Shown here piece after piece: positions 42,814 to 57,473 of a stretch of 64,000 nt of DNA. The DNA comes from an uncultured Candidatus Saccharibacteria bacterium. GTDB taxonomy: Bacteria > Patescibacteriota > Minisyncoccia > UBA6257 > UBA9933. A program made the translations under genes and the position numbers. Below the pieces are notes generated by a model. That model was not told the origin of the DNA and searched no databases. It worked only from the letters and a program-made list of their open reading frames with translations. Each line of letters opens with the position of its first letter. Within the stretch, counting starts at the first letter, position 1. The stretch is from contig CAYRXZ010000002.1 in assembly GCA_964428615.1 (NCBI GenBank), positions 968 through 64,967 of the forward strand, read 5' to 3'.

Positions 42814-42844
42814 ATTTAGTTCGAATTCGGTCTGAAAAACAGAA

Positions 42845-42876: not shown

Positions 42877-42940
42877 TATTGAAAATTTATTAAAAATAAA
42901 TTATAATAATTTAAAGATTAAAGATTAAAGATTTTAACCT

Positions 42941-43576
42941 ATGGTCATCACTTTTTATGGCGAAGGCTGTTTTAAAATTCAAAGCGGCGAGCTTTCTGTT
43001 TTGATAGATCCTTTTGACGCTCAAACAGGGCTGACGCCGCCTCGTTTTAAGGCGGATATTGTTCTAAAAACGATTACATCAACTTCTTTTTTCGAGAAAA
43101 AAGAAGTTCCACTTTCTTCGGAAATTATCGGTCAGGGAGAGTATAATATTAAGGGCGCTGATATTTCGGGATTCCAATTAATAAAAGAATCGTCGAAAAT
43201 TTTTTTTAAAACAGTGTATGTCTTAAGAATTGAGGATATTAATTTATGTTTTTTAGGGCATATTTCTGAGGTTCCCGAGCCGACGGTTTTAGAACGTTTA
43301 GGAGAACCGGATATTATTTTTATTCCGGCCGGAGGTTCGCCATTTATAGATTTAAAGTCAGCGGTGAAAATTGCCAAACAGTTCCAGCCCAAAATGGTAA
43401 TACCTTCCTTCTTTAAAGTCCCCTCACTAAAAAGAAAAGCAGGAGATATTAAAGATTTTTTGGAAGAGTTTAACGGAGCTAAAGAAAAAATTAATGAAGC
43501 TGTTGAAAAATTAACAATAAAAAAGAAAGATTTGGCAGGAATAAAAAAAACGCAAATTACTGTATTAAAAATATGA
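42941..43576 (+). CDS. Metallo-beta-lactamase-fold hydrolase (UPF0173-like), metal-binding motif apparently degenerate
   Basis: ITFYGEGCFKIQSGELSVLIDPF resembles the MBL-fold family. The canonical HxHxDH motif is not evident. Confidence 0.45.
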   Translation: MVITFYGEGCFKIQSGELSVLIDPFDAQTGLTPPRFKADIVLKTITSTSFFEKKEVPLSSEIIGQGEYNIKGADISGFQLIKESSKIFFKTVYVLRIEDINLCFLGHISEVPEPTVLERLGEPDIIFIPAGGSPFIDLKSAVKIAKQFQPKMVIPSFFKVPSLKRKAGDIKDFLEEFNGAKEKINEAVEKLTIKKKDLAGIKKTQITVLKI

Positions 43577-43863
43577 TGTGGGTTAAAAGATTTATTGGAC
43601 GAATTCAAAATTCTGATGAACAAATAAAAAGGCGGTGGACGATTTTATTTAGTGTTACGGCGATTATGGTAGTTACTGCATTTTGGATTCTTTTTATGGT
43701 TCGTCAGATATCTTTTGTTGCGCCGGAAATTACCAATATAGATGAGCCGGGATTTTGGCAGATTTTTAAAAATGGAGCGTTAATGATTTTTAATTCAATT
43801 GGTGAAAATATTAAAAACATTTTTTTATTAATAACGGAGAAAAATACGATCGTAATAGAATAG
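43573..43863 (+). CDS. Hypothetical single-pass membrane protein
   Basis: ORF with ATGA overlap to the upstream gene. One TM helix (WTILFSVTAIMVVTAFWILFMV). Confidence 0.3.
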   Translation: MMWVKRFIGRIQNSDEQIKRRWTILFSVTAIMVVTAFWILFMVRQISFVAPEITNIDEPGFWQIFKNGALMIFNSIGENIKNIFLLITEKNTIVIE

Positions 43864-43877
43864 ACATGTCATAGAGA

Positions 43878-46328
43878 ATGGATATAAAAAATCAAAAAAT
43901 TGAAAAACAGGAAATAACAGATGAGCTTCGCGAATGTTATCTTGATTATGCGATGTCGGTTATAGTTTCGCGTGCTTTGCCTGACTTAAGAGACGGATTA
44001 AAACCAGTTCAAAGAAGAATTTTATGGACAATGTGGGAAGAAGGATTGGGATATTCGGCAAAATTCAGAAAATCGGCAAATGTTACAGGAACTGTTTTGG
44101 CGCGCTATCATCCGCATGGCGATATGGCAGTTTATGACGCTCTTGCCAGAATGGCGCAAGATTTTTCTTTAAGATATCCCCTTATTAAAGGACAGGGGAA
44201 CTGGGGCAGTATTGATGGTGATGCACCCGCCGCCCAACGTTACACCGAGGCCAAACTCACAAAAATTTCCGAGGAACTTTTATTTGATATTGAAAAAGAA
44301 ACCGTAGATTGGCAGCAGAATTATGATTCAACAAGAGAAGAACCAAAAGTCTTACCTTCAAAACTCCCAAACCTTTTACTTAATGGTTCATTTGGTATTG
44401 CCGTGGGAATGTCGACAAATATTCCTCCACATAATCTTTCTGAAATAGTAGACGCTTCAATTTATTTGGCAGATCACCCAAAAAGCGGGAATGAAGAACT
44501 TACGCAATTTATCCAAGGACCGGATTTTCCGACTGGTGGAATTATTTACGATAAAAAAGCGATTATTGAAGCATATGCCTCGGGTAAGGGAGCAATAACT
44601 TGCAGAGCTAAAACCGAAATAGAAGAAAGAAAGGCGGGGCAATTCAATATTGTAGTTACAGAAATTCCTTATCAAGTGAACAAGTCGGAACTTATAATTA
44701 AAATTGCCGAATTAGTTACAGATAAAAGAATAGAAGGAGTTCGCGATTTGCGCGATGAGAGCGACAGAGATGGTATGAGAATAGTGGTTGAACTTAAAAA
44801 TGACGCCAACCCTCAGAAAATTTTAAATCAGCTTTTCAAGCACACCGATCTACAGAAAAACTTTAATCTTAATATGATTGCGCTAGTAAGTGGAATTCAG
44901 CCGCAGCTTTTGTCTCTAAAGGAGGTTTTGGCTGGCCACTTGGAACATCGTAGGTTAGTGGTTGAAAAACGCGCTAAATATGAACTTAAAAAAGCTAAAG
45001 AACGCGAGCATATTCTTGAAGGTTTGGCAAAAGCACTTTCAAAAATAGATGAGATAATTTCAACAATTAAAAAATCAAAAGACCGTTCGGACGCTCATGA
45101 GAATTTGGTAAAGAAATTTAAATTTACCGATATCCAAGCGACTGCCATTTTGGAAATGAGACTCCAAAACTTGGCGGCTTTAGAAAGAAACAAAATAGAA
45201 GCTGAGCTTGAAGAGAAAAGAAAAATAATACGTGAACTTGAAATTTTACTTAAGAGTCCGGAAAAAATTCTTAAGGTTATCAAAGAAGAAATGCTTGAGC
45301 TTAAGACTATTTATGGTGATAGCCGTCGGACAAGGCTCGTTTCTTCCGGTTTAACAGAGTTTAAGGAAGAGGATTTAATTCCACAAGAAGAAGTTATGAT
45401 TACACTTTCGGGCAGTGGCTACATCAAAAGAGTCCCGCCTTCGACAATTAAAGTTCAGCATCGCGGCGGCAAAGGGGTTGTTGGCTCCGATGTCAGCGAG
45501 GAAGATTTTATAAGTCATTTTATTTCAGCGGATACTCATGATAATATTTTATTCTTTACAAATAGGGGCAGAGCTTTTCAAACGAAGGTTTATGAAATTC
45601 CAGCCGGTTCACGCACAAGCAAGGGCAAGGTAATTCAAAACTTTTTAGAAATTCCGACAGATGAAACAATAAGCGCCATCATTAGTTATTCGGATAAAAA
45701 AAATTCAGGTGGCGGAAAGTTTTTGGTGATGGTGACAAAAAAGGGAATAATTAAGAAAACCGGTTTGGAAAACTTTGAAAATATTCGCCGGAACGGAATA
45801 GCGGCGATTAACTTACAAAAAGGAGATGAACTTAAATGGGTTGAATTATCTTCGGGTAGGGACGAAATTATTTTGATTACTGCTAATGGTAAGGCGATAA
45901 GATTTAAGGAATCTCAATTAAGGTCGATGGGTAGAACAGCCGCCGGCGTGAAAGCTATTAAGATAAAAGGTAATGACTTTATTGCCGGGCTTGATATAAT
46001 AAATAGAGGTGATAAAACAAAAACAATAAGTGAAAAATTATTAATAATTACCGAAAATGGTTTCGCCAAACAGACACCATTAAAAGAATATAAAGTTCAA
46101 AGCCGTGGAGGACAAGGAATTAAAACGGCTAAAATTACCGAAAAAACAGGTAAAATAGTTACAGCGAAAATAATAGAAGGAGAAGAAGAACTTATGGCGC
46201 TTTCAAATAAGGGGCAGATTATAAAAACAAAAATTTCGGATATTAGAACGGCCGGCCGCGCTACTTCTGGAGTAAAAGTAATGAGGTTGAATAGCGGAGA
46301 TAAGGTGGCGGGAGCGGCAATATTGTAA
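43878..46328 (+). CDS. gyrA: DNA gyrase subunit A
   Basis: Active-site Tyr region (..AMRYTEAKL-like: QRYTEAKL), GyrA box QRRGGKG, C-terminal beta-pinwheel repeats. 816 aa. Confidence 0.95.
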
Positions 46329-46330
46329 AT

Positions 46331-47635
46331 ATGAATTTTTCTAAAACTCAGATAATAATTTTAGGAATAATAGGATCAATAGTTTTGTTTTTCACGCTGG
46401 TTTTTTTGGGTGTTATCCCGGGCCTAAAAACTTCAGGCTTGGGTAGTTTTACATTTGGGCCAGGTGGAGGAGATCAAGTAAAAATTAATTTTTGGGGTAT
46501 AGCTGAGGCTGATAGTCAAAATTCAGTACAGAAATTAATTGAAGAATATTCAAAAACTAATGGGAATATCCAAATAGCTTATCGTCACTTTGATGATGCG
46601 GAAACCTATGAAAAAACCTTATTGAATTCTTTAGCAATAGGGCAGGGGCCCGACATTTTTATGTTCCATAGCAGCTGGCTGATAAAACATTATGACAAAG
46701 CCGCGTCAGCACCTGAACCTTTAAATTTAAATTATATTCAACAAATATTTCCTGATGTGGTCCGGTATGATTTTTCGATAGAAAATAACGTTTACGCTTT
46801 GCCGCTTTATATAGACACATTAGCTATTATTTATAATAAAGATATTTTTAATGCTAAATCAATCGCTTTGGTGCCGAAAACATGGGCGGAATTTGAAAGT
46901 TTAGTTCCACAACTTCGGGAATTAAATATTTTAAATCAAGTAGTTAGGCCGGCTGCGGCAATAGGCGGTTCAAATAAGAGCATTAATACGGCTTCGGATA
47001 TATTAAATCTTTTGATTCTTCAATCAGGCAGTCAAATAGTTGATAAGCAAGGGCAAGTGACTTTAGGGCAAGATGCATTATCGGCTTTCAATTTTTATAT
47101 TCAATTTGCTGACCCTTCGGGCAGCTATTATACGTGGAATGATAATATCGGCAATTCGATAGAGCTTTTTAGTAGGGGAGATTTAGCGACAATTTTTGAT
47201 TATCAGTCGTCTCTTGCGTCAATAAAGGCAAGAAATCCTTATTTAAATATAGGAATTAGCGCTATGCCGCAATCAAATCTTGCGCAGCCAATTAATTATT
47301 CTGATTATTGGGGACTAGCAGTTTCAAGACAGAGCAAAAATCAAATTTTAGGATGGAATTTTATTATTGCTGTAACAGCAGACCCAAAAATGTCGGAAAT
47401 TTATCTTAAAGCAGCTGGAAAGCCACCGGCATTACGTTCTCTTATAGAAAAATATAAAATAGATGCCAATTTGAGTATTTTTGCCAAACAGGCGCTTACG
47501 GCAAAGTCTTGGCTCAAGTCAGACGGTAAAGCCATTAATCAAATTTTCTCAAATATGATAGGATATGTTTTAAATGGGAAATTATCTTCAGATAAGGCGA
47601 TGAATCAGGCCAAAAACGAAATAAACGCTTTATGA
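46331..47635 (+). CDS. Membrane-anchored extracellular solute-binding protein (ABC-type, family-1-like); no permease or ATPase genes adjacent
   Basis: N-terminal TM anchor, then a MalE-like fold pattern (KINFWGIAE.., GPDIFMF..). 434 aa. Confidence 0.65.
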   Translation: MNFSKTQIIILGIIGSIVLFFTLVFLGVIPGLKTSGLGSFTFGPGGGDQVKINFWGIAEADSQNSVQKLIEEYSKTNGNIQIAYRHFDDAETYEKTLLNSLAIGQGPDIFMFHSSWLIKHYDKAASAPEPLNLNYIQQIFPDVVRYDFSIENNVYALPLYIDTLAIIYNKDIFNAKSIALVPKTWAEFESLVPQLRELNILNQVVRPAAAIGGSNKSINTASDILNLLILQSGSQIVDKQGQVTLGQDALSAFNFYIQFADPSGSYYTWNDNIGNSIELFSRGDLATIFDYQSSLASIKARNPYLNIGISAMPQSNLAQPINYSDYWGLAVSRQSKNQILGWNFIIAVTADPKMSEIYLKAAGKPPALRSLIEKYKIDANLSIFAKQALTAKSWLKSDGKAINQIFSNMIGYVLNGKLSSDKAMNQAKNEINAL

Positions 47636-48048
47636 TTAGTAAAATGAAAAATTCAATTTTATTTTTTGCTTTGTATTTCGCGTTTTTTGCCGCTCGCGCC
47701 AATGCCGCTGGCGCTGGCCTGGTGCCTTGCGGAGGAGCCGAGCAAAACCCATGTACTTGGTGTCATTTCAGTCAGTTGGCGATAAATATTATAGACTTTA
47801 TGATGTATTTGGTTTTTCCTCTGGCGGCGGTAATGATTGTTATTGGTGGTATATTTATTATGACTTCCGGAGGTTCAAGCGCCAGGTTTAGCAAAGGGAA
47901 AGAAATGATTACTGGAGCGGTTATCGGAATTTTAATTGCCTTGCTTTCTTGGATAATTATTGATACAATAATTCAAACAATCGCGGTAGGTTGGGACGGT
48001 TTAAACTTAACTCCGTGGAATAAAATAAATTTAGGCGAAAAATGTTAA
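47632..48048 (+). CDS. TrbC/VirB2-like small secreted two-helix protein, paralogue 1 (signal peptide; Cys-rich CGGAEQNPCTWCH segment)
   Basis: Signal peptide MKNSILFFALYFAFFAARANA, then two hydrophobic helices separated by a short Lys-rich loop. Paralogous to the next four genes. Confidence 0.5.
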   Translation: MISKMKNSILFFALYFAFFAARANAAGAGLVPCGGAEQNPCTWCHFSQLAINIIDFMMYLVFPLAAVMIVIGGIFIMTSGGSSARFSKGKEMITGAVIGILIALLSWIIIDTIIQTIAVGWDGLNLTPWNKINLGEKC

Positions 48049-48051
48049 TTT

Positions 48052-48390
48052 ATGGCTAAATTTTCAAAAAAATTATTAGGCGTCGCTTTAGCGGCAGGTA
48101 ATGATTTAAAAAGCGCTGCTCAGCAGTTAGCGCAGGGTTCGCCAATCAGCAGTCCCGAAAAAATATTCTCAATTTTACAAAAAGTAGTCCAATATACCTA
48201 TACGGTTTTTTTCATTGTCGCAGTTTTATTTATTTTAATCGCCGCTTTTAATTTTTTAAATGCAAAAGGGGACCCGATTAAAATTAATAGCGCCAAAAGC
48301 CAAATTCTTTGGGCAATAGTGGCGATTGTTGTTGCTTTAGTATCGCTTGGAGCAGCTCAAATAATAAATAGTTTTATTGAGGGCGCCTAA
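48052..48390 (+). CDS. TrbC/VirB2-like small two-helix protein, paralogue 2
   Basis: Core ..ILQKVVQYTYTVFFIVAVLFILIAAFNFLNAKGDPIKINSAKSQILWAIVAIVVALVSLG shared with its neighbours. Confidence 0.5.
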   Translation: MAKFSKKLLGVALAAGNDLKSAAQQLAQGSPISSPEKIFSILQKVVQYTYTVFFIVAVLFILIAAFNFLNAKGDPIKINSAKSQILWAIVAIVVALVSLGAAQIINSFIEGA

Positions 48391-48398
48391 GAATAAAA

Positions 48399-48842
48399 AT
48401 GAGGAAAGCACTTATATTTTCAACTATTTTAATTTCTTTTTTGCCCTTTTTTGCTTTGGCGCAATTTACGCCGGGCTCAATTCCGGAACCCAGCGATTAC
48501 GGCATAAAAGGAGCAGAAAATATACCCACAAATAGCGATGATTTATTAGATATTTTAAGGTCAGTGGTTAAATTTGTTTATATAGCCTTTTTTATCATTG
48601 CTGTTTTGTTTATAGTGATTGCTGCGTTTAATTATTTGACTGGAGCTGATGCTCCAGATAAGATTAAAGCTGCTCATACACAGTTAGTTTATTCAATTAT
48701 CGCTATTGGCATAGCCTTACTAGCGTTGACATTACAGGTAGTTGTTGGAAGTTTCATTAAAAACACCGGCGGTTCAACTGTGCAAGAAAATCAAATTCAG
48801 TCCGGCTATCAATTAAATGATGGGTCTACGATGTATCGATAA
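48399..48842 (+). CDS. TrbC/VirB2-like small secreted two-helix protein, paralogue 3
   Basis: Signal peptide ..FFALA/QF. Core DILRSVVKFVYIAFFIIAVLFIVIAAFNYLTGADAPDKIKAAHTQLVYSIIAIGIALLALT. Confidence 0.5.
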   Translation: MRKALIFSTILISFLPFFALAQFTPGSIPEPSDYGIKGAENIPTNSDDLLDILRSVVKFVYIAFFIIAVLFIVIAAFNYLTGADAPDKIKAAHTQLVYSIIAIGIALLALTLQVVVGSFIKNTGGSTVQENQIQSGYQLNDGSTMYR

Positions 48843-48899
48843 ATTAAAAATTACATAATATAGACATAAAAGGTCGATTATTGAAAAATTAATTAAATT

Positions 48900-49280
48900 A
48901 TGAATTTATCAAAATCAAAGTTTATAGCGGCAGTTATTGCGGTTTCGATTATTTTGCCGCTTGCGAGTGTTGTTTATGCTCAACCGCAAACAGGTCTTAC
49001 TTTGCCTGGGGCAAATACCAATATTACAACTGTCTCTGGCATGGTTGACATTCTTCGCGGAATTGTTAGGTGGGTTTATGTTATATTCTTTATAATCGCT
49101 GTGTTATTTATTATTTTCGCGGCGTTCACCTATTTAACTGCGGGCGGAGACCCGGAAAAAACAAACAAAGCAAAGAATCAACTGATTTATGCAGCTGTTG
49201 CTATCGCCGTAGCTTTATTAGCGGTTGGGTTTCAGTCTATCGTAAGTAATTTCTTAGCTGCTCCGACAGCAGGAGTGTAA
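48900..49280 (+). CDS. TrbC/VirB2-like small secreted two-helix protein, paralogue 4
   Basis: Signal peptide ..SVVYA/QP. Core DILRGIVRWVYVIFFIIAVLFIIFAAFTYLTAGGDPEKTNKAKNQLIYAAVAIAVALLAVG. Confidence 0.5.
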   Translation: MNLSKSKFIAAVIAVSIILPLASVVYAQPQTGLTLPGANTNITTVSGMVDILRGIVRWVYVIFFIIAVLFIIFAAFTYLTAGGDPEKTNKAKNQLIYAAVAIAVALLAVGFQSIVSNFLAAPTAGV

Positions 49281-49298
49281 TTAATTATTGAATTTAAA

Positions 49299-49333
49299 CA
49301 TACGAGTCCCGTTTATACGGCGGGGCTCGTATG
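49299..49333 (+). terminator. Stable hairpin after pilin-like paralogue 4 (catacgagtcccg...cggggctcgtatg); no clear U-tract
   Basis: 13-bp stem with one G-U pair. May act as a partial terminator or processing site inside the array. Confidence 0.35.
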
Positions 49334-49357
49334 AAAATCGATTAGGATATTTTAATA

Positions 49358-49702
49358 ATGATAAAGTCTTTTCTAGAAAATATTTTTTTGAGTTTTAATA
49401 ATGTAGCGCATGGTGCTCCTGGTATAGGCGGTTTTCCTGGCGGTGGAACACTTCCAAATCCACTTGGAGAAGGCAGCACTTTTATTACAGTAATAAATAA
49501 TATTTTAAATTATTTAATATACATCAGCGCGCCGATTTTAGCGATAATGATTTTAGTCGGCGGTTTTCAGATTTTAACCGCTAAAGGCGAACCCGGAAAG
49601 ATAGTTTCTGGAAAACAGACGATAACATACGCCATTATAGGATTTCTTATAATTTTGGTTTCAAAAGGTGTGGCACTTATTCTTTTGAAAATAATGCAAT
49701 AA
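49358..49702 (+). CDS. TrbC/VirB2-like small two-helix protein, paralogue 5 (Gly/Pro-rich N-terminal segment)
   Basis: Core ..ILNYLIYISAPILAIMILVGGFQILTAKGEPGKIVSGKQTITYAIIGFLIILVS. The most divergent member. Confidence 0.45.
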   Translation: MIKSFLENIFLSFNNVAHGAPGIGGFPGGGTLPNPLGEGSTFITVINNILNYLIYISAPILAIMILVGGFQILTAKGEPGKIVSGKQTITYAIIGFLIILVSKGVALILLKIMQ

Positions 49703-49760
49703 AAAAAAATGACCCCGACAGCGAATGAATAAATAATTCACTGTCGGGGTTTTTGTTTTA
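49701..49760. terminator. Bidirectional intrinsic terminator (A9, ccccgacag...ctgtcgggg, T-rich) between the pilin-like array and the GC-rich island
   Basis: 9-bp GC stem flanked by A and T runs. Convergent genes on either side. Confidence 0.6.
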
Positions 49761-50174
49761 TCGCACTCGTACGATTTCTACGAGTGTCGTCGTTTTTACG
49801 CCTTGTGCGTTTATTAGGCGTAATCTCCCGGCGGGTGCTTCGCCGGTCCAACTTTCCCATCCGGCGGGCATATCGTAGATGATACGCTTACCGTCGAGTT
49901 GGTTTGCTATTGCTCTGTATGGAGCATTCCCACGCAAGCGGTGCAGTGTACCTGGACCGCCATAGATAGTGAGTACTTCATTGCATTTGCCCTTTTCGTC
50001 GCAGGGCGGGAGACAGAATGTTTGGGGTTGGAGTTGTGCTACCCGCGTTTCAGTCGGCGGCTTACTCTTGTCATCTTTTGTCACTATTACTATTGTTATC
50101 GCAATAATAACAACCGAAACAATTAGCAACGCCGCGCTTTTACCGCTAAGTATTTTTACTTTATTAACTGCCAT
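49758..50174 (-). CDS. Membrane-anchored hypothetical protein (N-terminal TM, CxxxC..C segment), GC-rich, co-oriented with the SPFH gene
   Basis: About 50-55% GC. TM helix AALLIVSVVIIAITIVIV. Start overlaps the SPFH stop by 11 nt. Possible NfeD-like partner, but no clear match. Confidence 0.45.
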   Translation of the reverse strand: MAVNKVKILSGKSAALLIVSVVIIAITIVIVTKDDKSKPPTETRVAQLQPQTFCLPPCDEKGKCNEVLTIYGGPGTLHRLRGNAPYRAIANQLDGKRIIYDMPAGWESWTGEAPAGRLRLINAQGVKTTTLVEIVRVR

Positions 50175-51243
50175 TTTTTCTCTCCTTCCAATTTTTTAAC
50201 AGATTAGACAGCAGATCTAAACCCTCAAGAGAAATTATTTTTCTGTCAATCGTGGCCTTGCCGGTCATTGCCGTTTCCGCTAAATTAACCGCCAGTTGCT
50301 CAGGGAGTTTCATATTCACATACTCGTTAATCATCTTTACTTTTTGCTCTTGTCTTTTTTGCGCTGCTTCCATTTCAGCCCCAGCTTGCCTCACGCTTTC
50401 CAGCGCTTTTTTGGTTGCTTCTGAAAAATCGACATCTGCAAGTCTGAAGATAGCGATATCAATCCCATAGAGTTTCTCTATGGATGAGAGTTTTTCTTTC
50501 AATTCCGCCTCCTGCTCAAGGAGAAAAGAAGCTCTTGTGATGTTTTGTTCATAAAAAGACAGTTCATCAAGAACAATTTCTTTTTCTCCTTTCTCTTCTT
50601 TTAACACTATCGGCAACTGCCATCTCGACTTTTCTATTTTTTCCGCTATCTCATTATATTCTTCGCCTTTAACCGATTTTTCTATGTCTACCAAATACTC
50701 TTTCAGGCACTCTTCATCCATTTCATATTTTTCTACTTTTCCCTTGTTATCCCTTACTGGATTTACCCAATGATGAGGAGGTTTTTCCAGTCTTAAAACA
50801 CAGTTAATGAAAATTTCCAATGCTCTTCTTGACCGAATAAAGTTATCGCCTTCTTTAATACCGGCGATTTTCCCCAATTCGCTCTTCACAGCATCGGCCA
50901 TTCCATCAACAATTGTTTTTTCCTGCATCTCGATAAAAACATCAAGATTATCGGGCCGCCACTGAATCGAGCCGGCCGTCTTAATTTCAAGCCGATCCAT
51001 AGAAAAAACATCGAAAGAAAGTGATTTTGTTTGTAATTCTCTAGAAAAAAGCACTACTTTGTCTATGAAAGGCGCAATCGTATTTAGCCCTTCCCTGAGA
51101 ATCCTCACCTTTCCATTTCTTTTAATCCGCTCCTTAAATCGCGTTACTATCCCGAAATATACTGTCGGGATAATAACAATAGCATTAAGCGCTATCACAA
51201 CGGCTATTACAATCAATCCTATCAAGATTATCCATCCCATCAC
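50164..51243 (-). CDS. SPFH/band-7 (stomatin/prohibitin/flotillin-like) membrane protein with long C-terminal coiled coil
   Basis: N-terminal TM, then an SPFH pattern (PTVYFGIVTRFKER...GLNTIAPFIDKVVLFSRELQT..FSMDRLEIKTAGSIQWR). Strong Shine-Dalgarno ggaaggagg. Elevated GC. Confidence 0.7.
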   Translation of the reverse strand: MMGWIILIGLIVIAVVIALNAIVIIPTVYFGIVTRFKERIKRNGKVRILREGLNTIAPFIDKVVLFSRELQTKSLSFDVFSMDRLEIKTAGSIQWRPDNLDVFIEMQEKTIVDGMADAVKSELGKIAGIKEGDNFIRSRRALEIFINCVLRLEKPPHHWVNPVRDNKGKVEKYEMDEECLKEYLVDIEKSVKGEEYNEIAEKIEKSRWQLPIVLKEEKGEKEIVLDELSFYEQNITRASFLLEQEAELKEKLSSIEKLYGIDIAIFRLADVDFSEATKKALESVRQAGAEMEAAQKRQEQKVKMINEYVNMKLPEQLAVNLAETAMTGKATIDRKIISLEGLDLLSNLLKNWKERKNGS

Positions 51244-51333
51244 TCTTCCTCCTTCCGGCCAATGGCCTTTCTATATTTTTATTTGCCTTTCTTATATACT
51301 TTTTAAAGTCCGCAAGAGCGGGCTTTTCCCACG

Positions 51334-51352
51334 CTTGTAATGCTATAAAATA
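51334..51352. promoter_or_regulatory. Perfect palindrome atgctata-aaa-tatagcat about 90-110 bp upstream of the SPFH gene; candidate operator
   Basis: 8-bp perfect inverted repeat with a 3-bp spacer. Shares a GCTATA half-site with the CGCTATAGCG palindromes. Confidence 0.3.
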
Positions 51353-51522
51353 TAGCATAAAATAATAAAAAAGTCAATCCACACACTTAATTTAACGATA
51401 ATTAAGTACGGAGTATGGATTTTCGCTCCCGTTAACATATTGGCAGAAAGGCGAGAGGCGCGGAAAAAGAAAAAAAGTATTTTCAGGTTCAATTTGGAGA
51501 TAAAAATTTTTATGAGTTTTTA

Positions 51523-51900
51523 TTGTCTATAAGATTAACTCATGCGAAATCAAAGACAGTTAAAGATCTAGATATCCCAAACAATTATTTTGCAGATTTT
51601 TTAAGGGGCTGCATTGACGGAGATGGTTCTATTGGCGCGTTTAAGCATCCCGAAAGTAAACATCCTCAATTGCGAATAAGATTATATTCCGCAAGCGTAC
51701 CATTTTTACAATGGATTAAGAAAGAAGTTTTGTATAATACAAAAATAAAAACCGGCTGGATTGAAGAAAAAGAAGGTATTAATGTATTAGCTTATGCAAA
51801 AGAGGACTCTATTAAATTATTAAATTTTGTTTATTATAAAAACGTTGAATATTATTTAAAACGTAAATATAATATTGCGAAAGCATTTTTGCGGGTATAG
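51523..51900 (+). CDS. Free-standing single-motif LAGLIDADG-family homing-endonuclease-like protein (TTG start; 3' end overlaps tRNA-Leu by ~10 nt)
   Basis: FADFLRGCIDGDGSIGAF matches the LAGLIDADG signature at an I-CreI-like position. 125 aa, so short. Confidence 0.6.
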   Translation: MSIRLTHAKSKTVKDLDIPNNYFADFLRGCIDGDGSIGAFKHPESKHPQLRIRLYSASVPFLQWIKKEVLYNTKIKTGWIEEKEGINVLAYAKEDSIKLLNFVYYKNVEYYLKRKYNIAKAFLRV

Positions 51901-51972
51901 CCAAATTGGTAAAGGCGCATGGCTTAGAACCATGTGAGGAAACTCTTGGAGGTTCGAGTCCTCCTACCCGCA
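51891..51972 (+). tRNA. tRNA-Leu (anticodon TAG), type II with long variable arm
   Basis: Acceptor GCGGGTA/TACCCGC. Anticodon stem CATGG/CCATG with loop CTTAGAA. Variable arm tgaggaaactcttggag. T-arm GGTTCGAGTCC. Confidence 0.8.
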
Positions 51973-51976
51973 CAAT

Positions 51977-52933
51977 CTATTTTCTTCTTCTGCCGTGGAA
52001 AGTCTGATGGATTTCGCGGAGTTCTTTGTTTGTTAAATGAGTATAGATTTGAGTTGTGGAGACATTGGCATGGCCTAATAATTCTTGCACCGAACGCAAA
52101 TCCGCTCCGCCGATGAGTAAATCGGTGGCGAAAAGATGGCGAATAGTATGCGGATGTACTTTCTGCGGGATGCCGGCCTTTCTGGAATAAAAATCAACAA
52201 TTCTTTGAATGGTGCGGGGGAGTATTCTTCCGATTATTTTTGGGTTATCCGCTTTTGTTAAACTTATAAACAAAGCTTCTTCGGCATCGCCGCGTTTTTC
52301 CAAATAATTTTTAATTGCAGTTTTTGCGCGTTCGGAAAGAAAAACTATTCTTAGTTTTCCGCCTTTGCCGCGAATACTAATTTCTCCACGTTTTAAATCC
52401 AAATGTCGATTAAGCGCGCAAAGTTCGGAAATACGGAGACCGGTTGAAAACAGCATTTCTAAAATAGCTTTATCACGGAGAGAACGCAAGTCAGAACCTT
52501 TAGGCGCGGCAAGCAGTCTTTCTAGGTCGGCATATTCAATGATTTCAATCTGTCGGGTGGGAATTTTGGGCAGCTCTATTTTGTCCGGAGACATCACTTC
52601 AATATCGCGTTTGTTTATGTATTTCAGAAAATTTCTAATGGCAATGACATAATAACTTTGGGTAATTTTTTTTATATTTCTTCTTGCTAGAAAAAGCCGG
52701 AATTCGCGAATAATATCCGGTGTAATACTTTTTTCGGTTTTTATTTTCCCGAATCCCAAAAATGCTTTTAAATAGCGATCGTAATTTTCACGAGTTTTAA
52801 TTGAGCGGTTTTTTTCTATTTCCAGATAATTTAGGTAGTCATTAAGAAGCTTTTTTATATCTGCCATATTATTGTTGATTTTACCATTTTTAGTGGTATA
52901 ATTAAATGAAAGCTGAAAATGTTTATTGTTCAA
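51977..52933 (-). CDS. Tyrosine recombinase, XerC/XerD family (3' end 5 nt from the tRNA-Leu 3' end)
   Basis: Catalytic region ..GLRISELCALN.., HPHTIRHLFATDLL..G.DLR.VQELLGHANVSTTQIYTHL. The likely true start is the internal MADIKKLL.. (core-binding domain). Confidence 0.85.
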   Translation of the reverse strand: MNNKHFQLSFNYTTKNGKINNNMADIKKLLNDYLNYLEIEKNRSIKTRENYDRYLKAFLGFGKIKTEKSITPDIIREFRLFLARRNIKKITQSYYVIAIRNFLKYINKRDIEVMSPDKIELPKIPTRQIEIIEYADLERLLAAPKGSDLRSLRDKAILEMLFSTGLRISELCALNRHLDLKRGEISIRGKGGKLRIVFLSERAKTAIKNYLEKRGDAEEALFISLTKADNPKIIGRILPRTIQRIVDFYSRKAGIPQKVHPHTIRHLFATDLLIGGADLRSVQELLGHANVSTTQIYTHLTNKELREIHQTFHGRRRK

Positions 52934-53278
52934 CTTATTTTTTATTTCCTCTCCAATATACTCGCCTTGTTGGTAGCGACATATTTTATAGAGGGGTTTA
53001 TTCTTGAGCCGGGCCTGAATAGCTTGGTTTTAACAGCGGTTGCTTTAACCCTTATAAACACACTTATAAGGCCGATTATCAAGCTTATTCTTACACCGAT
53101 AATCCTTTTTACTTTTGGGTTGGGGGTTATAATAGTAAATACCTTGATGCTCTATTTACTTGACAAACTTTTGCCAAACATTACTATAACAGGTGTATTG
53201 CCGCTTTTTTACGCAACACTGATTATTAGTGTGGTCAATCTTGTGGTTAATTTTTCAGCAAGAAAAATAACAAGTTAA
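52919..53278 (+). CDS. DUF360-like (phage-holin-4 superfamily) small four-TM membrane protein
   Basis: LINTLIRPIIKLILTPIILFTFGLGVIIVNTLMLYLL resembles the DUF360 family. Recall-based. Confidence 0.45.
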   Translation: MFIVQLIFYFLSNILALLVATYFIEGFILEPGLNSLVLTAVALTLINTLIRPIIKLILTPIILFTFGLGVIIVNTLMLYLLDKLLPNITITGVLPLFYATLIISVVNLVVNFSARKITS

Positions 53279-53294
53279 AATTAAATTTAAATTT

Positions 53295-53507
53295 ATGTAT
53301 CTCGGGATAGCTCAAATAATAGTTTCAATAGTTTTAATTGTCTTAATTCTTCTTCAGGAACGCTCTTCGGGGCTTTCTGGGGTTTTTGGCGGAGGCGGAG
53401 GAGAATTTTATTCTCAAAGGCGTGGTATGGAGCGCATGATTTTTATCGCTACCATTGTTTTAGCCGTGGCTTTCGTTCTTTTATCAGCTTTGAATTTGGT
53501 TGTATGA
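53295..53507 (+). CDS. secG: Preprotein translocase subunit SecG
   Basis: 70 aa, two TM helices around a LLQERSSGLSGVFGGGGGEFY glycine-rich loop. Confidence 0.78.
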   Translation: MYLGIAQIIVSIVLIVLILLQERSSGLSGVFGGGGGEFYSQRRGMERMIFIATIVLAVAFVLLSALNLVV

Positions 53508-55162
53508 ATTTTTTAATAAAGATTTTTAAAAGTTTCTCAAAAAAAGAGAAACTGCTGTTCGCGGTTTCTTTTTTGGCGTTTCTATCATCTTCAATTTTTT
53601 GGACCGCAGACTTTTTTTCTCAAAGAACGGTTTTAGCGGCAGTTTCTGGCGGTGAATACATCGAGGGTATTATGGGCCAGCCTAGTTTTATCAACCCGGT
53701 TTTATCTGTTCAAGGAGGAGTAGATAGTGATATTAATGAGTTAATTTTCAGTAAAATTATTGATATGTCGGATAGCGTTAAAATGAATAATAATGGAAAA
53801 GCCTGGGATATACGCTTAAAGGCAGATATTTTTTGGGATGATAAACAGCCAATAACAAGTAAGGATATTGATTTTACAATTAAAAAAATTCAAAACAGTG
53901 ATACTCAGTCGCCGCTTGAGCCGATGTGGCGCGGAGTTCAAACAGAGATAGTAAGTAAATTAGAAATAAAAGTAATACTTTCCGAACAGTATTTCTTCTT
54001 TGATGAAACATTGAAAAATTTAATGATAATCCCAGAGCATCTTTTTGCTGAAACTCCGGCGGCTAATATCAAGATTTCCGATTATAATCTTGAACCGACA
54101 GGCAACGGACTTTTTAGGTTTAAGTCTTTTAAAAAAGAAAAGTCGGGATTTATTTCAGAGTATAGATTTACCAGAAATGAAGCTTATTTCGGCAAAAAAC
54201 CTTATATTGAAAGTGTAGTTTTTAAATTTTATAAAAATGAGGATGAGTTGATAAAAGCTTTTAATTTAGGAGAAATTAATGGCTTTGGCGGAGTAAGCGC
54301 GAAAAATCTTAATAATATAAACATAAACAGTAAAGTTTTTAATTTGATGATGCCAAGATATTACGCTTTATTTTTCAACTCTTACGCGCAAAAGAATTTA
54401 GCAGGGAAGAATGTAAGAATGGCTTTGAATTATGCCACTGATAAGAAAAGAATAGTAGATGAAATTTTTAATGGCAATGCAATTGTTGTCGACGGGCCGA
54501 TAATTTTAGGGATGAATGGTTATAAACCGGAAACTTTTTCAGAAAACGTTTTTTCATTGGAAAAGGCGGCAAGTGTTTTAGATGTTGACGGTTGGCGAAT
54601 TGATGAAGATGGGATTCGCGCAAAAACAGTTAAAAAAGAAATATTACGCTTAGAATTTAATTTGATTTGTCCGAAAGTTCAATACATGGAAGACTCCGCT
54701 AATATAATTACTTCTGATTGGGCAAAAATAGGAATTAAGCTTAATATTTTGATTAAATCCCCCGAAGAAATAGATGAAATAATCAAAACTAGAAATTATG
54801 AAATGATAATTTTTGGCAATAGTTTTGTAAGTTACAATAACCCCGATTTGTCATCGTTCTGGTATTCATCGCAAAAGTTTTATCCAGGGTTTAATTTATC
54901 GCTTTACGAAAATAAATCAGTTGATAATTTAATTAAAATTTCAAGAGAAACAACAAGTGATTCAAGGCGCCAGTCTGCTCTTTCAAGTTTGCAATCTATT
55001 ATTGTCGGCGATCAACCGGCGATATTTCTTTTTTCGCCAGATTATATTTACATTAACAAGTTGCAATTGGGAGGTTTTGAGGAAACAAAAATAAATTCTG
55101 CAAGCGACCGTTTTCGAAATATTGAAAATTGGTATATTAAAACTGCAAGAGTATTTAAATAA
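53504..55162 (+). CDS. Membrane-anchored extracellular solute-binding protein, family 5 (oligopeptide/nickel-type); orphan
   Basis: N-terminal TM, then a family-5 solute-binding pattern (..YRFTRNEAYFGKKPYIESVVFKFYKNEDE..A...GEIDG). 552 aa. No permease genes nearby. Confidence 0.6.
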   Translation: MNFLIKIFKSFSKKEKLLFAVSFLAFLSSSIFWTADFFSQRTVLAAVSGGEYIEGIMGQPSFINPVLSVQGGVDSDINELIFSKIIDMSDSVKMNNNGKAWDIRLKADIFWDDKQPITSKDIDFTIKKIQNSDTQSPLEPMWRGVQTEIVSKLEIKVILSEQYFFFDETLKNLMIIPEHLFAETPAANIKISDYNLEPTGNGLFRFKSFKKEKSGFISEYRFTRNEAYFGKKPYIESVVFKFYKNEDELIKAFNLGEINGFGGVSAKNLNNININSKVFNLMMPRYYALFFNSYAQKNLAGKNVRMALNYATDKKRIVDEIFNGNAIVVDGPIILGMNGYKPETFSENVFSLEKAASVLDVDGWRIDEDGIRAKTVKKEILRLEFNLICPKVQYMEDSANIITSDWAKIGIKLNILIKSPEEIDEIIKTRNYEMIIFGNSFVSYNNPDLSSFWYSSQKFYPGFNLSLYENKSVDNLIKISRETTSDSRRQSALSSLQSIIVGDQPAIFLFSPDYIYINKLQLGGFEETKINSASDRFRNIENWYIKTARVFK

Positions 55163-55189
55163 AATTATTTATGGGGTTGACTTTTTCTT

Positions 55190-55525
55190 ATGGATATTGA
55201 ACAATATAAACAACTTGCCAAGCTTATAAAGGATAATGAGGTTTATAAAGTTTACGATCTTCCCGAGCTTAAGGACCTGGAAATTTCTTTAACCGAACTT
55301 AACCCCCACGAGTCAACGATTGGGCATTCTCATGCCGAAGCCGATGAGGTTTATCTTTTTATTAAGGGACAAGGGATTATGGAAAATGGTTCGCAAAATA
55401 TCGATGTAAAAACCGGCGATGTTGTTCCTGTTAAAGGAGGTGATTTTCATAGGGTTCATAATAAAAGTGAAGAAATCTTGAGTTTTTGGGCAATTTTTGA
55501 AAAATACGGAGGACGAGGAAAATAA
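55190..55525 (+). CDS. Small cupin-domain protein
   Basis: G.HSH...EVY..I.G.G......DV..GD.V....G..HR cupin motifs. 111 aa. Confidence 0.55.
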   Translation: MDIEQYKQLAKLIKDNEVYKVYDLPELKDLEISLTELNPHESTIGHSHAEADEVYLFIKGQGIMENGSQNIDVKTGDVVPVKGGDFHRVHNKSEEILSFWAIFEKYGGRGK

Positions 55526-55569
55526 TTTTTAATTTCTAATTATTAATTTTTAACTGAACTATGACTTAG

Positions 55570-55652
55570 GGGCGAGTGGTGAAATGGCAAACACGTAGGC
55601 TTCAGGAGTCTATGATCGTAAGATCTTGAGGGTTCAAGTCCCTCCTCGCCCA
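55570..55652 (+). tRNA. tRNA-Leu (anticodon CAG), type II
   Basis: Acceptor GGGCGAG/CTCGCCC. Anticodon stem TAGGC/GTCTA (one G-U pair) with loop TTCAGGA. Long variable arm. T-arm GAGGG-TTCAAGT-CCCTC. Confidence 0.75.
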
Positions 55653-55703
55653 CTTTTGTAATGTGTATTAATAAATAAAATTAAATAAAAAATAAATAAA
55701 AAA

Positions 55704-57473
55704 ATGGTAAGACAATCGGTTAGACAATTAGCCAGGCAAAAATCAACAACAACACGGAGAAAAATTTATGCTCCGAGAAAAGAAAAGGAAATAGAATTAT
55801 CCAAAGGAGAAGCGGTGATGCGTTTTGCTACCTTGGGCGGTCTTGAGGAAGTCGGTCGCAATATGATGTTTTTTGAGTATGAAGACGAGATTATTATTTT
55901 GGATGCCGGCTTGCAGTTTCCTGAAGAAGCGACGCCGGGAATAGACTATATTATTCCTAATGTTTCTTATCTCGAGGAAAGGAAAAACAAGGTTAAAGCA
56001 TTAATAATTACTCATGGTCATTATGACCATATAGGCGCTATTCCGCACATAATGGATAAAATTGGCAATCCGCCGCTTTTTACGGCTGCGATGACAAAAG
56101 AAATTATTCTTAGAAGACAGGAAGATTATTCGAAAGCGCCGAAAATCAATTTTGAAGTAGTTAAAGCAGGGGATATCCGTCAACTTTCGAAAAATTTTAA
56201 AGCGGAATTTTTCGGCGTTACCCATAACATTCCCGATGGCGTCGGGGTAATTTTAGAAACACCTATCGGTAAAATGGTCCATGGTGGAGAATTTAAATTT
56301 GATTATGACGCCGATGGTAAGCCGAAAAATTTAGATGCGTGGGAAAAAATCGGTAAGCAAAAAATTCATACTTTGTTTTTAGAATCAACAGGAGCGGAAG
56401 AGCCGGGCTATTCCATTTCTGAAAGAGTAGTTGAACAAGAAATAGAAAAGCTTTTCAAAAAAGCCGGCGGTAGAATCATTGTCGGAACATTTGCTTCGCT
56501 TTTAGATAGAATAGCGGAGATAATTAAAATCGCCGAAAAAATGAACAAAAAAGTGGCTATAAGCGGCCTTTCAATGAAAATAAACATTCAGATAGCCAGA
56601 AATCTTAATTTTATGAAAATAAAAAAAGATACAATCATCCCATTGGAAGAAATTCATAAACATCGCGATGATAAGCTTGTTCTTCTTTGTACTGGCGCTC
56701 AAGGTGAGCCAAATGCTAGTTTAATGAAAATTGCCAATGGCGAACATCGCTATATTCGTATCAAAGAAGGAGATAGTATTATTCTCTCTTCTTCGATAGT
56801 TCCGGGGAATGAAAGAAGCGTTCAGATTTTAAAAGATGATTTTTCTCGGCAAGGCGCTTTGGTTTATCATTATAAAATGATAGATATTCACTCCAGTGGC
56901 CATGCGCCACAAGAAGAATTAAAAGCTGTTGTAAGAATGGTTAAACCTAAATACGTCGTTCCAATTCACGGTTACTATTTTATGCGTTGGCAAAATGCTC
57001 AGAATGCGCAAGAAGCTATTGGGTTGAAGCCCAAAGAAACAATTTTAATTGATAACGGCCAAATAGTTTTATTTACAAAAGACTCAGCAAGAATAACTTC
57101 TGAAAATATTCCGGCGTTTTATGTTATGGTTGATGGTTTGGGAGTGGGCGATGTGGGAGAAATTGTTTTAAGAGATAGAAGGGTTTTAGCGGAAGAAGGA
57201 ATGGTGGTGGTAATCGCTACTCTTGACCGTAGGACCGGCCAATTCCTTAAAAATCCCGACATTATTTCACGCGGGTTCATTCATTTGCGCGAGAGCAAAG
57301 ATTTTGTGGAAGACCTAAGAAAATATATCAGAGCTTTAGTTGCTAGAATTCCCCGGCATCAGCAAATAGACACGGATTATTTAAAATCTTTAATTAGAGA
57401 CCAAATCGGACAATTTTTGTATAATAAGACCAAGAGAAGGCCGATGATTTTGCCGGTAGTAATAATAGTATAA
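55704..57473 (+). CDS. rnj: Ribonuclease J (beta-CASP metallo-beta-lactamase RNase)
   Basis: HxHxDH (ITHGHYDHIGAIP), beta-CASP motifs, C-terminal domain. Basic N-terminal extension. 589 aa. Confidence 0.88.
   Translation: MVRQSVRQLARQKSTTTRRKIYAPRKEKEIELSKGEAVMRFATLGGLEEVGRNMMFFEYEDEIIILDAGLQFPEEATPGIDYIIPNVSYLEERKNKVKALIITHGHYDHIGAIPHIMDKIGNPPLFTAAMTKEIILRRQEDYSKAPKINFEVVKAGDIRQLSKNFKAEFFGVTHNIPDGVGVILETPIGKMVHGGEFKFDYDADGKPKNLDAWEKIGKQKIHTLFLESTGAEEPGYSISERVVEQEIEKLFKKAGGRIIVGTFASLLDRIAEIIKIAEKMNKKVAISGLSMKINIQIARNLNFMKIKKDTIIPLEEIHKHRDDKLVLLCTGAQGEPNASLMKIANGEHRYIRIKEGDSIILSSSIVPGNERSVQILKDDFSRQGALVYHYKMIDIHSSGHAPQEELKAVVRMVKPKYVVPIHGYYFMRWQNAQNAQEAIGLKPKETILIDNGQIVLFTKDSARITSENIPAFYVMVDGLGVGDVGEIVLRDRRVLAEEGMVVVIATLDRRTGQFLKNPDIISRGFIHLRESKDFVEDLRKYIRALVARIPRHQQIDTDYLKSLIRDQIGQFLYNKTKRRPMILPVVIIV

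Follow-up and report, generated by a model that had tools for sequence, protein, structure and literature searches.

A probably resident SPFH-partner operon with exchangeable modules at a fixed site in a CPR lineage

The two minus-strand genes described here probably form a resident operon of a CPR (Parcubacteria-like) lineage, which encodes an SPFH/Band_7 protein and a small membrane-anchored partner, and which occupies a fixed slot with modular contents swapped by recombination. The unit that lineages, and even strains, exchange with one another would comprise the SPFH gene and the N-terminal transmembrane (TM) anchor of the partner, and the C-terminal ectodomain of the partner would tend to remain with the chromosome. 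A conspicuous GC peak at the locus, which a preliminary description took for the mark of a recently imported island, would be the coding sequence of this ectodomain itself. The window, i.e., the whole stretch of 64,000 nucleotides that was analysed, contains the features listed in Table 1.

Table 1. Features of the SPFH-partner locus and its surroundings (positions in the window).
Feature	Position	Strand	Remarks
T4SS-pilin-like genes (PF18895), five	47632-49702	plus	Pfam E 3e-7 to 3e-12; convergent on the operon, kept in all relatives
Bidirectional intrinsic terminator	49703-49759	both	common to last pilin gene (plus) and partner gene (minus); 3' edge of variable slot
Partner gene, ORF	49758-50174	minus	138 aa
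Partner, C-terminal ectodomain	49758-50018	minus	last ~87 codons; GC-rich core (52.9%); resident module
Partner, N-terminal part	50019-50174	minus	Lys-rich N-terminus, one TM anchor, linker; exchangeable module
SPFH/Band_7 gene, ORF	50164-51243	minus	359 aa from GTG, 358 aa from ATG at 51240; exchangeable module
Conserved 5' leader	51244-51348	minus	A-rich tract, hairpin, abutting Shine-Dalgarno site; 5' edge of variable slot
Sigma-70-type promoter of the operon	51349-51377	minus	TTGACT, 17 nt, TG-extended TATATT
tRNA-Leu(tag)	51891-51973	plus	tRNA detection
XerC/D-type tyrosine recombinase	51977-52933	minus	235 bits to XerC

The two gene products

The larger protein belongs to the SPFH/Band_7 family, as the preliminary description had proposed, and its match to PF01145 (46.6 bits, E 5.2e-12; Pfam) exceeds the curated cut-off of 23.6. 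An N-terminal TM helix leads into an SPFH core, which bears an alpha/beta insert of ~100 amino acids, and a helix of ~36 residues lies at the C-terminus. The SPFH alpha/beta fold, the C-terminal helix and the N-terminal membrane anchor that characterize the superfamily are thus all present, and the fold matches HflC, HflK and QmcA. While the N-terminal TM helix had been recognized correctly, the “long” C-terminal coiled coil reduces to the single ~36-residue helix plus a short one. The SPFH domain is probably cytoplasmic, since orthologues with two TM segments carry a hairpin. An assignment to HflC was rejected, as the match to the TIGR01932 equivalog model reaches 31.4 bits, far below the cut-off of 134.4, and covers residues 6-104 only (NCBIfam), and the operon contains no second SPFH gene.

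In the partner, residues 12-34 form a single TM helix, and an all-beta domain comes after it. These two elements of the preliminary description stand, whereas the cysteines emphasized there are not conserved in orthologues. According to a structure model of moderate confidence (pLDDT 62.9), the ectodomain is predicted to adopt a small, 8-stranded jelly-roll or double-stranded beta-helix (DSBH)-like fold. Charge distribution and the 2-TM orthologues suggest that it resides outside the cell, on the membrane side opposite the SPFH domain. The TM-plus-beta-domain architecture is consistent across ~76 representatives of the partner family; two large proteins with several matches to the partner profile (P0032, P0046) look repetitive or of low complexity and were left out. 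The ectodomains are homologous across the clade, and orthologues of the partner share 43-59% amino-acid identity.

NfeD proteins were a candidate family for the partner, which, like them, comes from an SPFH operon and joins N-terminal TM helices to a soluble beta domain at the C-terminus (~30 loci). Yet, the partner has no Pfam match and nothing real in NCBIfam, none of 12 partner family members matches NfeD (PF01957) in Pfam at E up to 1, and the partner family profile retrieved no NfeD chains from all PDB sequences. The predicted fold is a jelly-roll rather than the five-stranded OB-fold beta-barrel. NfeD is ruled out by sequence and predicted fold, on which grounds the locus documents a non-NfeD partner family.

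Expression signals of the operon

The partner and SPFH ORFs overlap by 11 nt on the minus strand, at the SPFH stop codon, and a Shine-Dalgarno (SD) site for the partner lies within the SPFH gene, which agrees with the operonic arrangement of two overlapping genes proposed at the outset. The promoter reaches 10 of 12 matches plus the TG in a consensus scan and hardly varies among the aligned relatives. At the opposite end, the bidirectional terminator noticed earlier is a hairpin with 24-nt inverted arms between A and T runs, and folds at -29.8 and -33.5 kcal/mol on the two strands (z -7.5 and -8.5). Conserved promoter and leader would drive the operon, and the terminator common with the pilin array would end it.

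The leader DNA is 79-90% identical to that of the relatives L016, L017 and L018, compared to only ~76-77% in flanking coding DNA. It is alignable across cassette types, and with an HMM of the leader it was recovered ahead of ~20 of 30 cassettes; L016 carries a second copy upstream of an M48 (HtpX-type) peptidase gene. A small hairpin (GGCC-AUU-GGCC, 51267-51257) abuts the SD site. A riboswitch or structured leader is not claimed, because leader folding is unexceptional (z -1.25), and Rfam yielded no match in the region, either with gathering thresholds over the whole window or with permissive thresholds at 51150-51560.

Strong SD sites on both genes had been singled out as unlike those of the neighbours, and this holds true. 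The SPFH gene is preceded by GGAAGGAGG (51256-51248) and the partner gene by GGAAGGAG (50189-50182, inside the SPFH 3' end); SD sites of at least 6 nt occur in just 4 of the 59 ORFs of the window. Among relatives, 72-89% of the cassette genes have such a site versus 0-11% of other genes, and the partner SD and translational coupling are kept in orthologues. Judged by these comparisons, a strong SD is a clade-wide trait of the cassettes.

A conserved neighbourhood

In every context examined, gyrA is followed by an SBP gene, the T4SS-pilin array and the convergent partner and SPFH genes, with tRNA-Leu and XerC/D beyond. An SBP-anchored census of 80 loci found the SPFH-partner pair in ~30 loci long enough to judge. 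The pilin-like array next door was described correctly and comprises five PF18895 genes. The supposed homing endonuclease is a sub-threshold match to LAGLIDADG_3 (E 0.008). The recombinase is genuine, but its role at a junction is not borne out, as it is a housekeeping enzyme of the XerC/D type, syntenic in relatives and 87-92% identical in the close ones. The tRNA-Leu(tag) gene is likewise present in L016, L017, L019 and L026. Since tRNA and Xer genes are syntenic in relatives, they are conserved neighbours rather than an integration junction or scar.

The hallmarks of a genomic island, namely an empty site in relatives combined with a tRNA target, integrase or direct repeats, were not found. 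Close relatives have a different SPFH-partner pair at this site, contrary to the earlier notion of an inserted island absent from relatives, and no att-like, DGR-like or flanking direct repeats surround the pair. Matches from outside the CPR had been expected from BLASTP; there are none beyond CPR-like genomes, and the sole named match is Candidatus Lloydbacteria. Instead, the best matches all come from relatives that share the synteny (~30 lineages), which is the very outcome that the preliminary description had named as contrary to its import model.

Replacement of SPFH gene and anchor

Up to 49707, the window and L016, L017 and L018 are collinear, with 76-77% DNA identity; there, at the terminator, homology to L016 and L017 stops. 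L018 shares the ectodomain DNA (71% identity), and homology to it is absent beyond 50018. Homology to all three resumes at 51247-51377 (79-90%) and again from the Xer gene onward. Genomes with 90-93% identity in GyrA and 87-92% in Xer contain an SPFH protein without BLASTP match to that of the window; these slot proteins are also Band_7 members, yet they range from 246 to 376 aa, differ in architecture and cannot be aligned to the window protein. The best SPFH matches (37-45%) derive from genomes with just 51-76% GyrA identity, and no donor above 45% identity was found in the databases searched.

The same pattern recurs among strains. Over 9,020 nt, which take in the last 85 partner codons, L037 and L039 share 99.8% identity; beyond these, their anchors and SPFH genes are completely different, with sharp breakpoints, and identity returns to 97.6% in the leader. 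Three different anchors sit on an identical ectodomain in L037, L038 and L039; L037 and L039 stem from one metagenome assembly, where a chimeric bubble is possible, and L038 from another sample, which speaks against a chimera. The number of TM helices in the partner tracks the SPFH type in 30 of 30 loci: one helix in c5 (17/17), two in c18 (5/5) and c26 (3/3), three in c20 (2/2) and four in the others. A single ectodomain type is combined with three SPFH types, and a single SPFH type with six or more ectodomain clusters. Relatives that are equally close differ in ectodomain type, too (L016 and L017 on the one hand, the window and L018 on the other), and therefore the ectodomain is not strictly immobile. 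Horizontal exchange, as suspected initially, does occur at the locus in that SPFH gene and anchor are swapped, whereas a recent import from a higher-GC, non-CPR donor finds no support.

The exchange would proceed by homologous recombination, with the conserved leader as one anchor point and the partner ectodomain, the terminator and pilin DNA as the other.

Base composition of the ectodomain

The exchanged segment (SPFH gene plus partner TM anchor, ~50020-51246) has a GC content of only 39-41%. The preliminary description assigned 45-55% GC to both genes in a genome of ~30%; this applies to the partner gene only (48.2%, z +3.0, the highest among the 59 ORFs of the window) and not to the SPFH gene, which at 39.0% (z +0.8) is within the normal range, and the window itself was measured at 35.2%. 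The interval 49740-51360 as a whole has 41.3%, and the last ~87 partner codons, which encode the ectodomain, 52.9%. In codon usage the partner is the second and the SPFH gene the third most atypical of the 59 ORFs, so that, along with the strong SDs, the pair does stand out from its neighbours as described. Another ORF, at 3752-4279, is no less atypical.

The atypical composition sits in the ectodomain, which is shared with relatives and compositionally conserved, and the SPFH gene is only mildly atypical. The ectodomain has 50-53% GC in five lineages at dS of at least 1.4 or saturated, and a dN/dS of 0.18-0.31 indicates purifying selection. Since the GC content is kept despite saturated dS, it is an intrinsic, maintained property and not an un-ameliorated import, and because the composition is maintained in all orthologues, it is no relic of a high-GC donor. 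Partner GC exceeds that of the flank in 23 of 30 loci (mean +3.0 points), and the difference for SPFH is ~0. Gly, Pro, Ala and Arg abound in the ectodomain, and amino-acid composition explains about half of the GC excess of the partner (expected 42.9%, observed 48.2%). GC3 is raised as well, and we can only guess at GC-biased gene conversion at a recombination hotspot as its cause.

Alternative explanations

Four other accounts of the locus were weighed. According to the first reading, the whole two-gene island was recently supplied by a donor of higher GC content, probably from outside the CPR, and inserted at a tRNA/recombinase junction; GC content and SD sites would be donor signatures. The top-ranking GC content of the partner, the codon usage of both genes, the strong SDs unlike those of the neighbours and the lack of this SPFH type in the closest genomes would fit. 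Yet, an SPFH-partner pair fills the same slot throughout the clade, every homologue is found in the pilin/SBP/gyrA context typical of the same clade, and tRNA-Leu and Xer are syntenic with no flanking direct repeats found. Furthermore, the GC-rich piece is the part that close relatives share, with its GC content upheld despite saturated dS, the strong SD is clade-wide, and the SPFH gene has normal GC. Such an import is highly improbable and largely refuted already. Purely vertical inheritance with very fast divergence in situ, no exchange, and selection on the operon as the source of GC and SD is very unlikely, too. Synteny conserved everywhere, clade-wide ectodomain homology and SPFH identities that stay flat at 37-45% over very different GyrA distances are compatible with it. 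However, genomes with 90-93% GyrA identity hold unalignable SPFH proteins, flanks and partner 3' half can be 99.8% identical next to unrelated SPFH and anchor sequences, and ectodomain and SPFH types combine in several ways. These sharp breakpoints and the observed tree incongruence refute vertical divergence as the sole process.

A locus of conflict under diversifying selection, be it an anti-phage (abortive-infection-like) module or a determinant of phage or host contact, is unlikely, even though three alleles among near-identical strains represent the kind of strain-level turnover that is a signature of such loci. Many non-alignable types in one slot with a portable promoter, leader and SD, and an ectodomain predicted to be extracellular and adjoining surface pilin genes, point in the same direction. 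Opposed to this are the missing nuclease, toxin or NTPase partner, the lack of SPFH family relatives in a scan of viral contigs and the fact that the exposed ectodomain is the more stable module, under purifying selection. The suggestion of a defence-associated module also failed in a search of PADLOC-DB, where the SPFH protein, the partner, the LAGLIDADG-like ORF and Xer have no match at E up to 1. Finally, the cassettes have the leader in common with an HtpX-type protease, an indication of membrane homeostasis. RNA genes frequently account for GC peaks in AT-rich genomes, and the partner ORF lacks a Pfam match; the notion that the GC-rich stretch is a structured RNA or spurious, non-coding ORF nevertheless merits next to no credence. 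The absence of Rfam matches, orthologues at 43-59% amino-acid identity with dN/dS well below one, the conserved SD and translational coupling and the coherent architecture of the partner family are at odds with it, and this coding-conservation signal has already refuted it.

Relation to known systems

SPFH proteins are universal membrane scaffolds, the bacterial functions and partner specificity of which are poorly understood. The closest parallel is provided by SPFH-NfeD operons, such as Escherichia coli QmcA-YbbJ (PDB 8z5g), the Bacillus subtilis and Staphylococcus aureus flotillins with YuaF/NfeD, and Pyrococcus horikoshii PH1511/PH1510. Like these, the locus comprises two translationally coupled genes for an SPFH/Band_7 scaffold and a small partner with N-terminal TM and C-terminal all-beta parts, and the partner co-varies with the SPFH type. 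In contrast to the 5-stranded OB fold of NfeD, the beta domain here is a predicted 8-stranded jelly-roll/DSBH, probably extracellular and opposite the SPFH domain. Also, the unit that is swapped at the present locus ends within the partner gene, in that it includes the anchor and spares the ectodomain, and the site is constant, its promoter and leader being conserved. For SPFH-NfeD operons, frequent lateral transfer and co-evolution of SPFH proteins with their partners have already been described (PMC2636767; PMC13086221).

HflK/HflC modulate FtsH and are periplasmic, whereas the SPFH domain here is probably cytoplasmic, its core is broken by the ~100-aa insertion, the C-terminal helix is short, and the locus lacks an HflK paralogue as partner. 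Allelic cassette loci that are swapped through homologous flanks, e.g., capsule or O-antigen loci and defence-island hotspots amid conserved core genes, resemble the locus in their conserved flanks, non-homologous alleles at one site, sharp homology breakpoints and strain-level polymorphism. Unlike in these, the cassette always consists of SPFH and partner genes behind one promoter, leader and SD, one breakpoint is intragenic and respects a domain boundary, and mobility genes are absent, the adjacent recombinase being a housekeeping Xer.

Possible function and implications

We infer that the SPFH protein oligomerizes at the cytoplasmic side of the membrane into a cage or ring, which would enclose the matching partner TM anchor(s), while the partner would display its small, predicted jelly-roll domain outside. 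By analogy to SPFH-NfeD pairs, the two proteins may organize or quality-control a membrane patch. The patch is possibly linked to the adjacent pilin-like surface proteins, a link that is positional only, because the pilin genes are convergent and not co-transcribed with the operon.

The locus represents a natural domain-swap series, in which one ectodomain is found on three anchors, each with a different SPFH type. Given this series and the tracking of SPFH type by anchor TM number, the membrane anchor of the partner is predicted to be the specificity determinant. It is conceivable, albeit doubtful, that promoter, leader, strong SD and terminator constitute a dedicated plug-in expression site, by which Parcubacteria would shuffle SPFH proteins and matched anchors onto a lineage-specific surface ectodomain under frequency-dependent selection, e.g., by phage or host-cell contact. 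If so, SPFH-partner specificity would reside in the TM anchor.

The resident operon with swapped contents, which we favour, implies that cassettes in reduced CPR genomes turn over between strains at a site of the core genome. For genome scanning it carries the caution that a GC peak can mark the resident and not the imported part of a mosaic locus. The cassettes also exemplify a small gene class that keeps strong SD sites in an otherwise SD-poor clade.

A conserved slot for a rare gene pair

The SPFH (Band_7) gene and the gene of its small membrane-anchored partner overlap by 11 nt, in agreement with the operonic arrangement given in the preliminary description, and both are rare: a search of 5.8 billion clusters returned 10 relatives of the SPFH protein, at 35-45% identity, and two of the partner. 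Every contig carrying both has the same gene order, namely gyrA, a solute-binding protein (SBP) gene, 3-5 pilin-like genes (PF18895) and the convergent partner and SPFH genes; the arrangement is identical in the sole named genome match, Candidatus Lloydbacteria. A second search, anchored on SBP, provided 80 further loci, about 30 of them long enough to judge. In these, a convergent pair of a small transmembrane (TM) protein and a Band_7 protein comes after the pilin array, with tRNA-Leu(tag) and Xer frequently just past the pair, and a few distant loci pass from the pilins directly to Xer without it. The pair had been interpreted as a recently acquired island, lying next to a homing-endonuclease/tRNA/recombinase junction. 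It is not an insertion, as the same slot is filled in the roughly 30 judgeable relatives, and the supposed junction is ordinary conserved synteny. The recombinase is real but of the XerC/D type, 87-92% identical to that of close relatives.

Positions of features in the window and in related loci (L numbers)
Feature	Sequence	Position	Strand	Length
Terminator hairpin	window	49703-49759		
Partner gene	window	49758-50174	-	138 aa
Partner ectodomain	window	49758-50018	-	
Partner TM anchor	window	50019-50174	-	
SPFH gene	window	50164-51243	-	
Exchange unit	window	about 50020-51246		
No homology to L016, L017	window	49708-51246		
Conserved upstream region	window	51244-51377		
Leader	window	51244-51348		
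Promoter	window	51349-51377		
LAGLIDADG-like ORF	window	51523-51900	+	125 aa
Lipoprotein gene	window	3752-4279	+	175 aa
Lipoprotein upstream region	window	3640-3751		
Region compared with L016-L019	window	40000-56000		
Second leader copy	L016	12716-12857		
M48 peptidase gene	L016	12085-12711		
Helical protein at SPFH position	L017	11182-11940	-	252 aa
Its partner	L017	10220-11197	-	325 aa
Leader before c45 gene	L027	12919-13093		
Leader before c45 gene	L056	7052-7136		
c20-type pair	L051	about 8300-9700	+	

The putative homing endonuclease is an ORF whose LAGLIDADG_3 match stays below threshold (E 0.008) and which shares 10 nt with the 5' end of tRNA-Leu. It forms a singleton cluster, missing from every related locus, and is apparently a degenerate homing-endonuclease gene inserted in this lineage only. 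The tRNA comes almost directly after the leader in L017 and L019, and gyrA of L002 contains an intein with a LAGLIDADG domain. The pair is not restricted to the convergent slot, since in some lineages SPFH and partner genes of the c20 type (an SPFH protein cluster) read forward within or ahead of the pilin array: in L051, and past the first pilin in L054 and L055.

Replacement of the SPFH gene and the partner anchor

The closest genomes are L016-L019, whose identity to the window is 90-93% for GyrA, 68-77% for SBP and 71-79% for the last pilin. Their DNA runs collinear with that of the window, at 76-77% identity, as far as 49707, in the terminator. The bidirectional terminator of the preliminary description is confirmed as a strong hairpin with A and T runs on either side, folding at -29.8 and -33.5 kcal/mol on the two strands (z -7.5 and -8.5). 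Beyond this point homology to the window is lost in L016 and L017; it resumes, at 79-90% identity, over 51247-51377 and once more from Xer on. The slot holds Band_7 proteins of 246 aa in L016 and 376 aa in L018, both without similarity to the window's SPFH protein by BLASTP, and in L017 a 252-aa protein without any Pfam match. This helical protein, paired with a partner of about four TM helices plus the usual ectodomain, is either a non-SPFH occupant or an SPFH protein diverged past recognition. The best matches of the window's SPFH protein come from genomes with GyrA only 51-76% identical.

The breakpoint falls within the partner gene: L018 retains 71% DNA identity at 49700-50018, the ectodomain half, and none past 50018. 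Clearest of all are L037 and L039, two contigs of one sample: over 9,020 nt, through the partner's last 85 codons, their identity is 99.8%, but they are unrelated in the N-terminal anchor and the SPFH protein (465 aa versus 428 aa, different clusters), and identity is back at 97.6% in the leader; L038, from a different sample, combines the same ectodomain with a third anchor. The TM number of the anchor tracks the SPFH type in 30/30 loci, with one helix in type c5 (17/17), two in c18 (5/5) and c26 (3/3), three in c20 (2/2) and four in three singleton types, while ectodomain clusters pair freely with SPFH types. The unit of exchange is thus the SPFH protein together with the partner's membrane anchor.

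Lateral transfer of SPFH operons and co-evolution with their partners were documented earlier (PMC2636767; PMC13086221). New are the replacement of the cassette in place, behind a conserved promoter and leader; the breakpoint at a domain boundary within the partner gene; the ectodomain, which, unlike that of SPFH-NfeD pairs, is of a non-NfeD kind; and a Shine-Dalgarno (SD) usage that contrasts with the clade's remaining genes.

Promoter, leader and Shine-Dalgarno sites

The conserved upstream region comprises a near-consensus promoter (TTGACT-17-TG-TATATT), a partly variable stem region, an A-rich tract and a tiny GGCC-AUU-GGCC hairpin adjoining the SD, and in about 20 of 30 cassettes its profile matches directly upstream, irrespective of the SPFH type. 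In L016 an M48 (HtpX-type) peptidase gene is preceded by a second copy, and the element also precedes a small unknown gene (118-128 aa, cluster c45) located before SPFH in L027 and L056. These further copies suggest a small regulon or a recombination anchor that recurs. An Rfam search gave no match and the folding energy is unexceptional; the region is therefore treated as promoter plus leader rather than as a riboswitch.

Both cassette genes indeed have strong SDs, GGAAGGAG(G) at a spacing of 7, and just 4 of the 59 window ORFs have an SD at least 6 nt long. These sites do not mark foreign origin, since they are a clade-wide cassette trait: across all loci they precede 72% of cassette genes (89% allowing alternative starts), compared with 2-3% of pilin genes, 0/74 SBP genes, 0/64 gyrA/Xer genes and 8-11% of other genes. 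Throughout the window and L001-L095 the clade is almost without SDs, which are absent upstream of gyrA, rpoB/C, the SBP gene and pilin genes, as well as of the ribosomal-protein genes of L015, with their AT-rich leaders. The exception is a small class of genes with SDs of 7-11 nt: the SPFH cassettes, some last pilins (L005, L014) and the lipoprotein gene at 3752. The window holds no rRNA gene.

Partner family and possible function

The partner ectodomains of all loci align to a single pattern (PPG..FRI, DG+, W.G, FRL, G, terminal beta strand), and a search of 1.84 billion proteins with its profile yields 76 representatives, most of them 120-180 aa long and of unchanged architecture. The window's partner has the expected single TM helix, followed by eight beta strands; its extracytoplasmic Cys residues lack conservation in relatives, and the "long coiled coil" of the SPFH protein is a single helix of about 36 residues. 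The N-termini of one-TM anchors are Lys-rich and the loops of two-TM anchors strongly basic, a charge distribution that in both arrangements would place the ectodomain outside the cell. Some SPFH orthologues carry two N-terminal TM helices separated by a 2-residue loop, which suggests a cytoplasmic SPFH domain.

The pair most likely acts in the manner of SPFH-NfeD pairs: a ring or cage of SPFH protein on the cytoplasmic face would corral the partner's matched TM anchors, and the partner would present a small beta-sandwich on the outer face. The partner gene adjoins genes for pilin-like surface proteins. QmcA was found to suppress, in multicopy, the ftsH htpX double mutation of E. coli, and we favour membrane-protein homeostasis over defence because of this genetic link and because the leader also serves an HtpX-type protease. 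A locus driven by conflict is a less likely reading, prompted by the turnover of alleles at strain level; a PADLOC search, which bears on the defence module proposed earlier, gave no match.

Base composition of the cassette

Against a window GC of 35.2%, the supposed island of 45-55% GC reaches only 41.3% over its entire interval and 39.0% in the SPFH gene (z +0.8); the partner gene alone, at 48.2%, fits the description and tops the 59 window ORFs (z +3.0). The latter ranks second in GC3 and in atypical synonymous codon usage, the SPFH gene third in atypical codon usage. The island thus shrinks to about 420 bp, more precisely to the partner's last 87 codons (52.9% GC), which are the ectodomain, a module common to the window, L018, L019 and L024. 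The organism's codon preferences and the amino-acid composition predict 42.9% GC for the partner, and amino-acid composition accounts for about half of the excess.

These 87 codons stay at 50-53% GC in the window, L018, L024, L009 and L010, despite synonymous divergence of at least 1.4 or saturated and backgrounds spanning 35 to 42%. The GC content is therefore a property that the coding sequence maintains, not a donor signature; dN/dS of 0.18-0.31 indicates a real gene under purifying selection. Partner GC exceeds the flanks in 23/30 loci (mean 3.0 points), SPFH genes showing no excess (+0.6 points). The raised GC3 might reflect GC-biased gene conversion at a recombination hotspot. The contrast is largest in the window (+11 points), in part owing to a background that is more AT-rich by about 5 points than in close relatives: the shared flanking genes have 37% GC in the window and 41-43% in L016-L019. 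With GyrA 90-93% identical, this indicates recent AT drift in the window's lineage, which magnifies the local contrast. The observation of a GC-rich pair is partly confirmed and its interpretation partly supported: horizontal exchange did occur, but within the clade, in the other half of the locus and not as the cause of the GC peak.

Compositionally as odd as the partner is a predicted lipoprotein (lipobox LSGC; no family match in Pfam or NCBIfam), with 45.5% GC; it ranks first among the 59 ORFs in GC3 (0.483) and in atypical codon usage. Its gene is among the four with a strong SD (AGGAGG), and its upstream region contains a further AAAAGGAGGT site as well as a short upstream ATG.
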